NCBI GenBank assembly: GCA_965222075.1
Contig: OZ244937.1
Location: 256,001 to 320,000 of the forward strand
Length of the DNA stretch: 64,000 bases
Direction of reading: 5' to 3'
Origin: Candidatus Latescibacterota bacterium
Lineage (GTDB): Bacteria > Latescibacterota > UBA2968 > GCA-2709665
Shown here: piece by piece, positions 59,226-64,000 of the stretch
Layout: each line of letters starts with the position of its first letter
Position numbering within the stretch: the stretch's first letter is position 1
The notes under the pieces: model-generated
Told to the model about the DNA's origin: nothing
What the model saw: the letters and a program-made list of their open reading frames with translations, nothing else
Database searches by the model: none
Program-made: the position numbers and the translations under genes

Positions 59226-61652
59226 ATGAAAAAATGGATTTTTCATCTCACCGCACTAACCGGATTGAATGTTTGCATTTTCGCGTTGCTCTATCTCTTG
59301 TGTGCGGGCGATGCCTCTGCTCAGCAAATCCAGACGCCTGCTCCGCCGAGCATGGACGGTGATTTTCAGACGTGGCATTTGCCCGAAGGTGCCCTCGCCC
59401 GCCTGGGCAAGGGAGCCATTGGTGAAGGCGACCGGGCGGTGGCGCTTTCGTCTGACGGGAAATATCTCGCCGTGGCCAGTGGCGTCGGCGTGTGGCTGTA
59501 CGAGATGGCGACGTCCCGTGCCCTGGCGCTGCTACCCACTGCGAGTCCAGTCTATTCGGTGGCGTTTTCGCGCGGCACCATGCTCGCTTCGGGTTTGGTC
59601 AATGGCAGGATTGAGCTATGGGAGGTCAAAACGGGCACGCGGATTGCCATCTTTGAAGGGCGCAGGTGGGTTCGAGTTACTTCGGTGTTGTTTTCGCCTG
59701 ATGGTGCCACTCTCGTTTCCGGCTCTTATGATGGCGCGGTCAGGCTGTGGGATGTGGCGTCCCGAAAACGCATCGCCACCCTGGAAGGGCATACAGAGCA
59801 GGTCACTTCGGTGTCGTTTTCGCCTGATGGTGCCACTCTGGCTTCCGGGTCGCAGGATAAAGCGGTCAAGCTGTGGGATGTGGCGTCCCGAGAAGAGGTC
59901 GCTACCCTGGAAGGGCACTGGCATTTGGTCAGTTCGGTGTCGTTTTCTCCCGATGGCGACATTGTTGCTTCCGGGTCGTGGGATCGCACGGTCAGGCTGT
60001 GGGATGTGTCGGCCCGCGAAGAGATCACTACCCTGGGGAGGCACAGTTCTATTATCAGTTCGGTGTCGTTTTCGCCTGATGGCGCCACTCTGGCTTCCGG
60101 GGGAAGGGATCACACGGTCAGGCTGTGGGATGTGGCGTCCCGAGAAGAGGTCGCCACCCTGGAGGGGCATACGTATCGCGTCAATTCTGTGGTGTTTTCT
60201 CCTGATGGGACCACTCTCGTTTCCGGGGCAGCGGACGGTATGGTTCTGCTGCGGGATGTGGAGACGGGAAATGTCGCCAGGCTCTCCGGGTATATAAGTG
60301 TCAGCTCGTTGGCGTTTTCTCCCGATGGGACCACTCTGGCTTCCGGCTCTAATGATGAAACGATCAAGCTGTGGGATGTGGCGTCCCGAGAAGAGGTCGC
60401 CACCCTGGAGGGGCATACGTATCACGTCAATTCTGTGGTGTTTTCTCCCGATGGGACCACTTTGGCTTCCGGCTCTGAGGATGAAACGATCAAGCTGTGG
60501 GACGTGGCGGCCCGAGAAGAGGTCGCCACCCTGGAGGGGCATACGTATCGCGTCAATTCTGTGGTGTTTTCTCCCGATGGGACCACTTTGGCTTCCGGCT
60601 CTGAGGATGAAACGATCAAGCTGTGGGATGTGGCGACCCGAAAAGAGATCGCCACCCGGAAAGGGCACTGGTATGGAGTCAATTCTGTGGTGTTTTCTCC
60701 CGATGGGACCACTCTGGCTTCCGGGGGAGGGGATGGCACGGTCAGGCTGTGGGATGTGGCGTCCCGAAAAGAGGTCGCCACGCTGGAGGGGCATAGGAAT
60801 AGGATCAATTCTGTGGTGTTTTCTCCTGATGGGATCACCCTCGCTTCGGGGGGATCGGATCGCACGGTCAGGCTGTGGGACGTGGCGTCCCGAAAAGAGA
60901 TCGCTGCCTTTGAAGGGCATACGGATGAGGCCATTACGTCTGAGGTCAATTCTGTGGTGTTTTCTCGCGACGGGACCACTCTGGTTTCCGGCTCTTATGA
61001 TGGCGCGGTCAGGCTGTGGGATGTGGCGTCCCGAAAAGAGGTCGCCACTCTGGAGGGGCATACGGATGGGGTCATTTCTGTGGTGTTTTTGCCCTATAGG
61101 ACCACTCTGGTTTCCGGCTCTTATGATGGTACGATGTTGTTGTGGGATATGTTGCCGTACATCACCTCATGCACGCCGAGGCCGCCGGTGAAAATCTACG
61201 GCGACAAACAGGAAGGAATGGTCGGAACCGCTTTGGCCAAGCCGTTTGTCGTTTGGGTGTTGGATGAGAAGGGGGCGGCGTTTGAAGGCGTGCCGGTCTC
61301 GTTTGCTGTGACTGCAGGTGGGGGGAGGCTCTCTGTTGAGACCACGGTGACGGATGCGAATGGTCGAGCATCGAGCACGCTGACGCTTGGGAGTGAACCA
61401 GGCACAAACACCGTTGTGGTAAGGGTTGCAGGAACTGAGGAGACGGCGACCTTTGTCGCAGAAACTTTAGCTATGCCCGACTTTGACGGCGATGGTGCGG
61501 TGGGTTTTTCCGACTTTTTGCTGTTTGCCCAGCAGTTCGGGTTACGTCAAGGCGATGCGGGGTATGACGCGCGGTATGATCTGGATGGGGATGGGACCAT
61601 CGGGTTTGGGGATTTTGTGATTTTTGCCAAGGCCTTCGGGAAAGAAGGTTGA
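59226..61652 (+). CDS. secreted WD40-repeat protein with Big_1 and EF-hand/dockerin-like tail
   Basis: Signal peptide; about 14 WD40 repeats; same upstream GGAGCAGGGGCCAATG as 51725. Confidence 0.9.
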
Positions 61653-61769: not shown

Positions 61770-62051
61770 ATGCGTTTCTTCAACACGGCCGGTCCCATCA
61801 AGCCGGATATTCACTACGATGTCCCGCCGTTGGAACGGATTGACCTGGACGAGGTGCCGATGCTGATCGAGCAGCAGAGGTACTTTGTCATGCACGCGCC
61901 CCGGCAGACGGGCAAGACGTCCTCTCTGCTGGCCTTGATGGACGAGCTGAACGGCGGCGGGCGGTATCGCTGCATGTACGTGAACGTGGAGATCGGCCAG
62001 TCCGCACGCGGGATACGAAAGCTACGGTGTGGGGGATGTGAAGGGAAATGA
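61770..62051 (+). pseudogene. internally deleted copy of the AAA ATPase gene
   Basis: First 80 codons match 57271; at 62010/62011 the sequence jumps to the gene's last about 30 nt. Confidence 0.85.
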
Positions 62052-62279
62052 CTCCGCAGTGATGATAGGAGAGTAGATCCATGAAACCCCCCGTTCTTTG
62101 TATTGCAGATCGAAAATTTATCGTATTGAACGTGATGTGTGACTTTAAATAGGAGAAAGGAGGTCTTAAGGCTACCTTGTAAGTATCACCAAAACGAGGC
62201 AGCCAACCCCCAACAGGAGGGACCTCCAAATGTATAATTTAGAACTATTCGTCATCGCTGTCTACTGTTTAATTGCCGA

Positions 62280-62312
62280 CCTGCCTGCCGCGCGGTGCTT
62301 GGCGCAGGCAGG
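62280..62312 (+). repeat. 33-bp micro-element, in frame (LPAARCLAQAG)
   Basis: CCTGCCT GCCGCGC GGT GCTTGGC GC AGGCAGG; removal gives ADELY. Confidence 0.9.
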
Positions 62313-62804
62313 TGAGTTGTATCCCAACTTCTGTCAAAGATATGGCCCCCCCCGTCGGGCAGGCTTTTCACCAACCCTGAGTGATGCGGAATGCCTGACG
62401 ATTGAAATCGTTGGACAATTTCTGGGCTATCCCAATCAAAAGCAACTCTTTGAGCGGATGCGTGAGCGCTTCGGCACCTGGTTTCCAGATCTAAAAGAGA
62501 GGGAGGCCTTTGTGCGCCAATCGGCCAATCTTTGGCAGGTCAAAGCCATTTTACACCAGCAGTTGGTGGAAAGGTTAGGTGGCCATCACGCCCCCTGTCA
62601 GATCATTGATACCCTGCCCGTTCCCATCTGTCACCTGGCACGGAGGTGGAGGCGAAAAATCTTCAAAACAGACCCCGTCTTTGATTTTCCAGACCCCACC
62701 AAGGGCTACTGTGCGGCCAAAAAGGAAGCATACTTTGGCTTCAAAGGGGGACTGCGGATCACAAAGGATGGCCTGATTGTTCACGCGCCGCTGTTGCAAG
62801 CCTA

Positions 62805-62837
62805 CCTGCCTGCAGCGCAGGGCACTGCGCAGGCAGG
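62805..62837 (+). repeat. 33-bp micro-element, in frame (LPAAQGTAQAG)
   Basis: CCTGCCT GCAGCGC AGG GCACTGC GC AGGCAGG; removal gives QAYGHD. Confidence 0.9.
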
Positions 62838-62894
62838 TGGTCATGACTCAAAGTGCCGCGACCAACTTCTGGAGGGAGTGCAACCCGATACCTT

Positions 62895-62921
62895 CTTGCC
62901 TGCGCGCAGCGCGCAAGCAGG
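62895..62921 (+). repeat. 27-bp micro-element, in frame (LPARSAQAG)
   Basis: CTTGCCT GCGC GCA GCGC GC AAGCAGG; removal gives TFVLGD. Confidence 0.9.
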
Positions 62922-63095
62922 TGTGTTGGGCGATACCGCTTTTTTGGATCTAAACTGGCAGGAAGCGTGTCAAAAACGCCATCAGGTGCGGGTTTTAACC
63001 CCCATCAAATCCAATATGAAGCCAACCCCACAGCGCAAACCCTTTATACTATCTGGGGTGGGAAAAACCCTGCGACGGTTGATTGAAACCGTCTA

Positions 63096-63122
63096 CCTGC
63101 CTGTGCGTTGCACGCAGACAGG
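63096..63122 (+). repeat. 27-bp micro-element, in frame (LPVRCTQTG)
   Basis: CCTGCCT GTGC GTT GCAC GC AGACAGG; removal gives IETVYAQL. Confidence 0.9.
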
Positions 63123-63223
63123 TGCACAACTGACCCAACGCTTTCAGGTGGCCAGAATGAGGGTGCGCGATGCCTGGCACTTCAGAACCTCTGGACCACC
63201 AAAATCTTAGCGCATACAGTCTG

Positions 63224-63275
63224 CCTGCTTGCCTGTCTGCCTTCGGCACAGGCAGGCGCGCTGCGCGCAGGCAAG
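63224..63275 (-). repeat. two nested micro-elements (27-bp outer, 25-bp inner at 63232-63256)
   Basis: Outer is the exact reverse complement of 62895-62921; removing both gives AHTVCVFLN. Confidence 0.9.
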
Positions 63276-63420
63276 CGTGTTCCTCAATATCCAGCTGCAA
63301 CGAGATCCCTTAGATTTTGAGGGACTCGTCCGATTCTAAAAAAAGTCTCACATGACGTTTGCTTCTACTACAACACAATTGCCCATCAATCGTAACTGAT
63401 TGTGGGCTTGTTCGTTTTAT

Positions 63421-63456
63421 TGTTGCAAACTACAACACGCGTTGTAAATTGCAACA
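63421..63456. promoter_or_regulatory. operator/enhancer-like inverted repeat
   Basis: TGTTGCAAACTACAAC-acgc-GTTGTAAATTGCAACA (14/16 match). Confidence 0.5.
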
Positions 63457-63648
63457 TTTTTCGTTCCCGCCTTACAACTTTTCCTATAACTACATTTATA
63501 AACAGGAAGTTATAAAATTCCTTCCGCATGGACTTGTTCTCCGGAGGGGTTTTTGCGTTGCATTTTGCGACAATTTCCAAAATTCCCGCTGCTCCCATAT
63601 TCTGCCTAACTCGTTCAATGGAAATGAGTTAGGCAGATTTTTGAGATT

Positions 63649-63664: not shown

Positions 63665-63696
63665 TGTACAGTTGAAAAGATCGTGCCATCCATATC

Positions 63697-63807
63697 CCTG
63701 TCTGCCTGCTTGCCTGTCTGCCTGCTTGCGCGCTGCGCGCAGGCAAGCGTGCAACGCACAGGCAGGCGCGCTACGCGCAGGCAAGCGTGCGGTGACGCAC
63801 AGGCAGG
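63697..63807 (-). repeat. four-level nested micro-element stack (30+27+27+27 = 111 bp)
   Basis: Left arms at 63697, 63705, 63713; intact innermost element 63721-63747; right parts 63748-63766, 63767-63785, 63786-63807. Confidence 0.92.
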
Positions 63808-63973
63808 GATGATGGCCTGTTGGAAAAAGGTCTCATCCCGGGTCTTCCAGACTTTCACCCGAGCCTGATTGATGGCTTCCTGAAGATCGAGGATATCATC
63901 CTGCTTGAAACGATGCAGCAAATCGCCTGCGGTAGAGGGAGCAGGCAACCGTTCAACCTCAAGCGCATCCCTG

Positions 63974-64000
63974 CCTGCCTGCAGCGCGGTACGCCGCGCA
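63974..64000 (+). repeat. micro-element cut by the window end (33-bp class)
   Basis: CCTGCCT GCAGCGC GGT ACGCCGC GC A...; GGCAGG is predicted to follow. Confidence 0.75.

Follow-up and report, generated by a model that had tools for sequence, protein, structure and literature searches.

A decayed IS982 insertion sequence as a probable sink for small mobile hairpins in a Latescibacterota genome

Introduction

How does a single insertion sequence (IS) come to hold six foreign hairpins, and do such small elements disarm the transposase they enter, travel along with it, or collect in DNA that the host can spare? The question is raised by a copy of an IS982-family element in Candidatus Latescibacterota bacterium (assembly GCA_965222075.1, contig OZ244937.1), which lies near the right end of the window, the 64,000-nt stretch (forward-strand positions 256,001 to 320,000 of the contig) that we analyzed. 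A preceding sequence-only reading had described six micro-elements at five sites of this copy and had offered two explanations, namely, targeted disarming of transposases or neutral accumulation in dead DNA. Our results revealed that the inserts are members of a genome-wide family of GC-rich hairpins, that some of them are also present in related IS982 transposases while others are not, and that the window copy is a pseudogene. We consider it probable that this decayed, single-copy IS982 element is a sink for genome-wide mobile hairpins of 25-36 nt, part of whose load was inherited along the IS lineage.

Results

Inserts and empty sites

The empty state of each site was read from a DNA alignment (A2) of the window copy with IS982 copies from a genome of the same genus (G001), from three genomes of the sister family (G029, G039, and G035), and with a partial copy (G004). 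The first four show clean gaps at all five insert sites, and the partial copy, which covers only site 1, lacks s1 (coordinates in Table 1). The inserts total 172 nt and leave 1057 nt. These exact empty sites bear out what the sequence-only reading had proposed for the load (172 bp, five sites, six micro-elements, about 1057 bp left) and for the four inserts that keep the frame (s1-s4, of 33, 33, 27, and 27 nt); its borders of the IS, 62130 and 63358, are likewise right, both ends being conserved in the copies of five other genomes in A2. None of the five insert sites has a target-site duplication. The four frame-keeping inserts all lie in the same reading phase, after the second base of an NNT codon, which stays synonymous while a peptide of the form LP..AG is added. 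As DNA, all five inserts are predicted to fold into hairpins (-7.8 to -20.2 kcal/mol, z -1.2 to -4.4; s1 at -13.2 kcal/mol, z -3.2, and s2 at -16.3 kcal/mol, z -4.4). The outer 27-mer of the composite at the fifth site has the s3 sequence in inverted orientation, and the whole composite recurs, at 98% identity, at two other places of the resident genome (G000; 5.36 Mb, 59% G+C, a single contig).

A genome-wide family of mobile hairpins

The inserts belong to a family with stems CCTGCCTG...CAGGCAGG. A strict pattern (C[CT]TG[CT][CT]TG ... CA[AG][AG]CA[AG]G, arms complementary at at least 7 of 8 positions, 20-40 nt) retrieved 265 elements from G000 and 3 from a reversed-genome control, with main lengths of 33 nt (97 copies), 27 nt (51), 30 nt (19), 25 nt (17), and 36 nt (14); 233 elements were left once alternative pairings had been removed. 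Under a crude gene model (longest open reading frames [ORFs], 91% of the genome "coding"), 56 of these 233 are intergenic, at 0.119 per kb, and 177 genic, at 0.036 per kb, with many of them inside long ORFs that bear Pfam domains. Most elements are 27, 30, 33, or 36 nt long and stop-free, and a gene that is hit usually gains 9-12 residues. Lengths divisible by three (3n) account for 148/177 genic and 35/56 intergenic elements (Fisher p = 0.0014); hence, the frame-friendly length is in part intrinsic to the hairpin family and in part a product of selective filtering. Clear ORFs of at least 200 aa hold 92 3n elements, of which 47 follow the LP..AG phase, 21 use the second phase, and 24 use the third, so that four LP..AG peptides out of four in the window IS are unremarkable.

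Insertion is seamless. In ten filled/empty pairs, five from the window IS and five from other IS pairs of G000, no target duplication was found; the insertion step is A|T in eight of the ten, including all five pairs from other IS duplicates. Flank logos reveal no conservation other than purine at -1 and pyrimidine at +1. The orientation of elements relative to replication direction has no bias (Fisher p = 0.087 and 0.85). Lower G+C was considered as a cause of insertion and set aside, the median of the flanks being 56.7% against 60% at random places, a significant and small difference.

At the density of the genome (265 per 5.36 Mb), 0.061 elements would be expected per 1229 nt and P(>=6) is 7e-11, an estimate on which the clustering of the elements weighs (18.5% of neighbor distances are below 500 nt, versus 2.2% expected). 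Only one other locus of G000 is equally dense, an IS4 remnant at 4.022 Mb. The six-element load of the window IS is thus excluded as chance. The IS also has company: at least five more hairpins of the same family form a tandem or nested array just downstream (window 63690-63800), another lies at 63960-64000, and eight strict elements fall within 1229 nt counted from 62805. With this downstream array, the IS is part of a larger hot region.

The window copy is a pseudogene

A 1-nt deletion, the frame-breaking nested 25-mer, and the TAG stop that ensues make the window copy a pseudogene. The last nine residues of its 326-aa frame are out of frame relative to homologues (protein alignments A1 and A3). 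Both the deletion and the resulting stop had gone unnoticed in the sequence-only reading. The same 1-nt-deleted sequence occurs, with zero differences, in a contig from an independent run (X3, record 20). Across the s3-s4 stretch, contigs from three studies match the loaded copy without change. Contigs compared with the locus break at hairpins, and their joints are interpretable only for an s1-less variant (contigs X1 and X10) and for one X6 contig that skips exactly the 52 nt of s5 (depth 4.45).

Table 1. Features of the window IS982 copy (window coordinates)
Feature	Position	Strand	Description
IS982-family insertion sequence	62130..63358	+	1229 nt; 1057 nt minus inserts
Left terminal inverted repeat	62130..62152	+	kept across copies of alignment A2
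Truncated transposase frame	62230..63210	+	326 aa; premature TAG at 63208-63210
s1	62280..62312	+	33-nt hairpin; peptide LPAARCLAQAG; empty site GA|TG; splits N-terminal helix
s2	62805..62837	+	33-nt hairpin; peptide LPAAQGTAQAG; empty site TA|TG; in loop
s3	62895..62921	+	27-nt hairpin; peptide LPARSAQAG; empty site TT|TG; in beta strand
s4	63096..63122	+	27-nt hairpin; peptide LPVRCTQTG; empty site TA|TG; in catalytic helix
1-nt deletion site	63182..63183	+	CACTT-CAG; -1 frameshift (A2)
s5	63224..63275	+	52-nt composite of outer 27-mer and nested 25-mer; empty site ambiguous by 2 nt
Inner hairpin of s5	63232..63256	+	25 nt; nested in outer 27-mer; frame-breaking, +1
Transposase C-terminal remnant	63276..63339	+	VFLNIQLQRDPLDFEGLVRF, then natural stop; original frame restored, behind the TAG
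Right terminal inverted repeat	63336..63358	+	kept across copies of alignment A2

The element resembles the IS982 family in its DDE transposase of ~310 aa, its terminal inverted repeats, and its length of ~1 kb, and its clean relatives pass the NCBIfam model NF033520; it differs by 172 nt of foreign hairpins, a frameshift, a premature stop, and a score just under the cut-off. Specifically, the window ORF reaches 127.3 bits against a cut-off of 130 because of the inserts and the truncation, while a clean homologue (P0004) scores 164 bits, a loaded sister (P0122) 149.6, and another loaded variant (P0002) 113. The terminal repeats are complementary at 18 of 23 positions (read by eye). The flanks (...GTATTGA / TTGCTTC...) hold no evident direct repeat, i.e., no target-site duplication at the ends of the IS, where it may have decayed. 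A blastn search of the IS against G000 returned one full copy, that of the window, and one 110-nt left-end fragment (genome 1873578-1873686).

In protein alignment A1, no variation is seen at D127 and E286 (window numbering) and hardly any at D235; conservation and topology suggest that these three are the catalytic residues. The AlphaFold model of clean P0004 (predicted local distance difference test [pLDDT] 92.8) has the RNase-H-like order of strands and helices, with the presumed catalytic residues on strand 1, just past strand 4, and on the next long helix, and its best Foldseek matches are the piggyBac, Tn5, and ISCth4 transposases. Mapped onto this model, s1 falls in helix 4-27, s2 in loop 180-183, and s5 in helix 275-298; s3 falls in strand 199-202, four residues ahead of the second catalytic Asp (Asp204, VLGD), and s4 in helix 245-264, three residues past catalytic Glu255 (IETVY). 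The earlier statement that two inserts sit beside catalytic motifs therefore holds for s3 and s4. In the model of loaded P0122, the inserts loop out with pLDDT <50, which has no bearing on activity; models do not settle activity, and the harmlessness of the inserts beside the catalytic motifs would seem doubtful.

Shared and private inserts among IS982 relatives

The 110-nt fragment of G000 ends before s1, so a comparison of IS982 copies within the genome is uninformative, and other genomes, protein clusters, and other IS families were used instead. Sharing among IS982 relatives was judged from protein sequences only (protein clusters, alignments A1 and A3, and an insert matrix), in which assembly chimeras, of which P0002 could be an example, are possible. 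The s4 insert is present in all 10 loaded protein variants, and s1 in eight, the window copy and seven others. Several loaded variants have a whole frame from Met to natural C-terminus (P0122, 341 aa; P0003, 332; P0126, 354; and P0002, 376). The nearest relative of the window copy, P0122, is 96% identical; most of its 12 differences over 286 backbone positions fall in the tail affected by the frameshift. P0122 carries s1, s4, and the 27-mer that forms the outer part of s5, and lacks s2, s3, the nested 25-mer, and the deletion. We take s1, s4, and the outer part of s5 to represent the older state; s2, s3, and the nested 25-mer, absent from so close a relative, are probable later hits in the lineage of the window copy. 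The comparison of all copies that had been proposed earlier thus gives both answers: some inserts are common, as expected if the IS spread while loaded, and some are private, as expected of later hits.

The distribution is nevertheless a mosaic that simple inheritance followed by later hits does not explain. The s2 insert recurs in P0002 and P0126 and is missing from P0003, a variant separated from P0126 by 5 differences over 312 positions, and s3 recurs in P0016. Over 100 N-terminal positions, a clean variant, P0129, and the loaded P0127 have a single difference, while carriers of s1 include lineages that differ at ~20 of 100. P0002 looks recombinant, its N-terminus resembling P0008 and P0127 and its C-terminus differing from P0122 at 4 of 112 positions. 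Such presence and absence requires that IS copies recombined or underwent conversion, that inserts were lost precisely, or that sites were hit repeatedly. At s1, s2, s3, and s4, the peptide is identical in every carrier, and the 33-mer of s1 is rare in G000, where it falls below the two-copy end of the list of commonest sequences (a one-base variant of it has two copies, and the commonest 33-mer has 22). The identical peptides and the rare s1 type speak against repeated hits. At another site, sA, the peptides of three variants differ in a loop residue (LPVRA-D/S/A-ARTQTG), and repeated hits may have occurred there.

Clean relatives are common. Strict elements inside IS982 copies were found in none of 25 loci scanned across genomes, where the sole element lay outside the IS fragment, at fragment locus L035 of G000. 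A further 32 IS982 loci (11 on metagenome contigs and 21 on genome contigs) have zero strict elements and represent clean relatives only. Homologues of 312 aa at 70-73% identity are without any insert peptide. Homologues from genomes with background element counts carry none of the peptides, and on this point the earlier claim that the peptides are inserted stands.

Dependence on the resident genome

The element pattern was counted in 53 genomes of the order, with a backwards-pattern control at 0-6 per genome. G000 heads the count with 252 matches, followed by G021 (196), G009 (191), G019 (144), G003 (119), G002 (92), G024 (88), G020 (84), and G018 (62); the other 44 genomes have at most 22 each, G001 having 20 and G004 having 3, and matches within one genus range from 1 to 196. 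In G001 the IS982 copy is dead yet clean; it has a TAA in frame and 23 nt of inserted DNA of a different kind. That of G004, interrupted by ~1.26 kb, is also dead yet clean. The copies in G029, G035, G039, and G052, at 4-6 per genome, are clean. These observations support the view that hairpin hits depend on the resident genome. The G001 copy occupies L003 83-1157, and its unrelated insert reads AAATGGTTCGACAAGCTCACCAC.

Hosts of the hairpins

Among transposase-type hosts, the densest clusters lie in the IS4 remnant, two degenerate ISKra4 copies, two IS5-type (DDE_Tnp_4) copies, an IS5 N-terminal fragment, and rve remnants. Among hosts of other kinds, they lie in an outer-membrane barrel, in two NtrC-type regulators (linkers and upstream regions), and in several ORFs whose family is unknown. 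At least one element is present in 11 of 25 transposase-related loci, with up to six in degenerate copies, and none in six high-scoring ISKra4 copies (2-4 near-identical copies each). Altogether, transposase loci hold 29 of the 233 elements in ~36 kb, which is 0.81 per kb and ~7 times the intergenic density of 0.119 per kb, an enrichment that is biased upward and partly circular because some families were chosen after clusters had pointed to them. The lengths found in these loci are 3n in 19 of 29 cases, like the intergenic 35/56 and unlike the genic 148/177, and 8 of the genome's 17 frame-breaking 25-mers lie within them; this intergenic-like spectrum and the share of 25-mers point to relaxed selection in transposase loci. 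Five more families searched after the census added three rve remnants and one other remnant, which stand outside the census figures; by coordinates, elements lie no more than ~400 nt from two of these rve remnants, one of which is inside an ORF that was hit several times.

Pairs of IS copies within G000 supply further comparisons. A pair of IS5-type copies, 1144 nt long and 99.9% identical, has all three of its elements in common; an ISKra4 pair, 93.7% identical, has two in common and four private to one copy; and a DDE_Tnp_1 pair, 94.3% identical, differs by one private 27-mer. In the IS5-type copies (genome 1604153-1605296 and 4161425-4162568; L021 and L022), hairpins of 25, 27, and 25 nt split the transposase into two frames, and this element was recently copied although loaded and apparently broken. 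The two NtrC-type hosts are paralogous sigma-54 activators (L015 3712-5406 and L016 2127-4133; genome ~0.499 and 2.830 Mb) with hairpins in the linker that joins the AAA lid to the HTH domain; both have further hairpins upstream, beside rve transposase remnants.

Search for a mover

Insertion without target duplication fits HUH-type chemistry, and a Y1 enzyme of the REP-associated tyrosine transposase (RAYT; REP, repetitive extragenic palindromic) kind was considered as the mover. This candidate was rejected, as matches to PF01797 are unrelated to element counts across the 53 genomes: G019 combines 144 elements with zero matches, and G004 combines 32 matches with 3 elements. The two Y1 genes of G000 itself are of IS200 type, and one is broken. 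A RAYT with these hairpins on its flanks was not found, and the mover may be an enzyme that escaped recognition; the RAYT-like gene of G000 (genome 3242128-3242853) is flanked by a different repeat, and those of G021, G009, and G018 by another repeat that is GTAG-tagged.

The repeat beside the G000 gene also touches the window IS. It consists of small hairpins ending in CTAC (GTAG on the other strand), is unrelated to the family described here, and abuts the right end of the IS (window 63359-63470). A ~140-nt form of it flanks the RAYT-like gene as a direct repeat (genome 3241493-3241630 and 3242838-2975), with a piece inside the gene, and the arrangement looks like a classical GTAG-tagged REP/RAYT pair. 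In G021, a 1252-aa DNA-methylase-like frame (L091 14926-18681) contains a whole RAYT-like domain in frame, with a single 27-mer from the hairpin family immediately upstream of it.

Genes to the left of the IS

The N-terminal ~80 residues of an AAA-type ATPase (MRFFNTAGP...GKTS...; window 61770-62010) break off ~120 nt before the left end of the IS, and the gene seems to have been truncated by mobile DNA. Just upstream (window 59226-61652), and without connection to the present findings, lies the gene of a protein of 808 aa that has numerous WD40-like repeats and a tail resembling dockerin.

Discussion

The observations above are, in our judgment, probably best explained by a decayed, single-copy IS982 element that served as a sink for the mobile hairpins of its genome and had inherited some of them along its own lineage. 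Under this explanation, s1 and s4 would have arrived with the IS982 lineage; s2, s3, and the nested 25-mer would have been added later, in the lineage of G000. The 1-nt deletion, together with the 25-mer, ended the reading frame. IS DNA would gather hits since hits in such dispensable DNA cost the host nothing. On top of this neutrality, the density in excess of intergenic DNA suggests some extra preference for IS DNA, or transport by the IS between genomes. Neutral accumulation in dead DNA, as the sequence-only reading had put it, therefore survives in part. It agrees with the pseudogene state of the window copy, with clean young multicopy IS, with the clean dead copies in element-poor G001 and G004, and with the intergenic-like lengths, and it fails to account for the roughly sevenfold density over intergenic DNA and for the presence of s1 and s4 in whole-frame homologues; since many such homologues carry both, these two did not arise in dead DNA. 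Several points weigh against the sink explanation as a whole. Neutrality alone does not explain 0.81 versus 0.119 elements per kb, a comparison that is itself partly circular. Both s1 and s4 lie within helices of the fold and yet occur in many whole-frame variants, so that harmlessness by virtue of a dead gene fails for them. The mosaic exceeds what inheritance and later hits predict, and no mobilizing enzyme was found, PF01797 matches not tracking element counts and replication orientation having no bias.

One alternative turns the relation around, with the IS copying hairpins within a genome and carrying them between genomes, so that hairpins profit from their place in an IS and loaded lineages spread and seed further genomes, and with the enrichment in IS being the outcome of carriage rather than of relaxed selection alone. 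We regard this as possible, though rather doubtful. The distinct IS982 variants with s1 (eight) and s4 (ten), many with whole frames, the loaded IS5-type pair that is identical in all three elements, and the two elements common to the degenerate ISKra4 pair are what such carriage would produce, and the patchy counts among close relatives (252 in G000, 20 in a genome of the same genus, and 1-196 within a genus) suit horizontal arrival. However, the multicopy, evidently active IS982 of G029, G035, G039, and G052 and the multicopy ISKra4 of G000 are clean, a recipient genome would still require a mobilizing enzyme, and only ~29 of 233 elements lie in transposase loci. The loaded homologues are, moreover, known as proteins without flanks, and descent at one locus fits them too. 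A bolder view joins preference and carriage: the hairpins would be hyper-parasites of IS that prefer the transposase genes of many IS families, are tolerated as stop-free 3n inserts, and are carried between genomes, their gain and loss, through precise excision or short conversion tracts, roughly keeping pace with the build-up of point changes in the IS, so that each IS982 lineage has a reshuffled set, which may tune or switch transposase activity. We offer it tentatively, as a possibility with limited odds in its favor.

Were the five sites instead preferred targets that are hit again and again, the seemingly shared inserts would be independent and uninformative on the history of the IS. The mosaic across variants, the loop-residue differences at sA, which could reflect different family members, and the sites themselves, all A|T or T|T steps followed by G, are compatible with this, but each of s1-s4 has an identical peptide in every carrier, the s1 type is rare in G000, and flanks are unconserved past ~2 bases while a 1-kb IS offers many equivalent steps; recurrent hot-spot insertion is accordingly quite unlikely. 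Targeted disarming, in which the hairpins themselves, or a host system that employs them, would single out transposase genes and break the structure of the catalytic core, we judge very unlikely. It would draw on the transposase loci of IS982, IS4, IS5, ISKra4, and rve remnants as densest hosts, on the predicted placement of s3 before the catalytic Asp and of s4 after the catalytic Glu, and on family scores that fall from 164 bits in the clean homologue to 127 in the window copy and 113 in P0002. In-frame, stop-free inserts are a poor means of inactivation, though; loaded homologues retain whole frames, the six young ISKra4 copies are unhit, other multiply hit hosts are NtrC-type regulator linkers, an outer-membrane barrel, and unknown ORFs, and 177 of 233 elements lie in ordinary ORFs across the genome. 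Because the target is merely a dinucleotide step, nothing in it could recognize unrelated transposase genes. This half of the sequence-only reading is thus unsupported, the more so as recently active copies are untouched. That the peptides are native parts of an IS982-subfamily transposase, finally, might be suggested by the several homologues that have them. This reading is refuted, and we give it practically no credence: the 312-aa homologues and the DNA copies in five other genomes are without the peptides, each peptide matches a hairpin that recurs elsewhere in the genome as part of the 265-element family, and the stretches are modeled with pLDDT <50.

The wider meaning of the sink is that very small selfish DNA can colonize larger selfish DNA and travel with it. 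If the pattern holds, it would provide a natural system for studying how hairpins of 25-36 nt, without a recognizable transposase, move seamlessly, and it would bear on why their lengths match the reading frame and on IS as refuge and vehicle. The IS982 relatives form a graded series, from clean copies through whole-frame copies with 2, 3, 4, or 6 inserts to the dead copy of the window, which makes the effect of inserts on a DDE transposase directly testable. There is also a consequence for annotation, as the inserts lower the score of genuine transposases from 164 bits to 113-127, below the curated cut-offs.

Relation to known small repeats

Several classes of small repeat invite comparison. 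Our literature search surfaced neither this hairpin family nor REP-like elements concentrated in transposase genes, which is not proof of their absence. As to miniature inverted-repeat transposable elements, the ten filled/empty pairs are seamless, and no IS with such ends was found that could be the parent. The small dispersed repeats (SDR) of cyanobacteria, treated by Elhai et al. in 2008, are reportedly mobile hairpins, 21-27 nt in length, whose insertion leaves no duplication and which are found nested in one another and within larger mobile elements; they are said to lie mostly outside genes, and the hairpins here are of a different sequence family and phylum. The GC clusters or "byps" of yeast mitochondria, treated by Lang et al. 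in 2014, are likewise said to be short GC-rich mobile hairpins inside protein genes that the ribosome skips, whereas the 3n elements here could simply be translated.

In frame within protein genes, the hairpins recall the Rickettsia palindromic elements (RPEs), mobile palindromic repeats that are read as an extra peptide, as far as the available part of the source describes them (PMC10969869). RPEs are given there as ~150 bp long with metabolic genes as hosts, against 25-36 nt here, and the pile-up in transposase genes that we see does not belong to that part of the RPE description (PMC10969869). REP sequences, bacterial interspersed mosaic elements (BIMEs), and REP doublets forming hairpins (REPINs), which are moved by RAYT (Y1/HUH) transposases, offer a further set of parallels (PMC3116915; PMC3733652). 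Like them, the elements here are imperfect palindromes of 20-40 nt in hundreds of copies (265 in this genome), form sequence sub-families with a conserved stem base, clusters, and nested arrays, have very uneven copy numbers among related genomes, and place some copies within ORFs (PMC3116915; PMC3733652), a location that Di Nocera et al. 2013 also report for REPs (PMC3733652). Relative to REP and REPIN as portrayed there, the hairpins here differ in having no GTAG or CGTC tag (flank logos and element sequences), in lying mostly in ORFs (177/233 under the crude gene model) rather than being extragenic, in their strong bias to 3n lengths without strand bias relative to replication, and in that a cognate flanked RAYT was not found and Y1 matches do not track element numbers. 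Taking likenesses and differences together, we regard the hairpins, by analogy, as a variant of the known small palindromic repeats (REP, RPE, and SDR).

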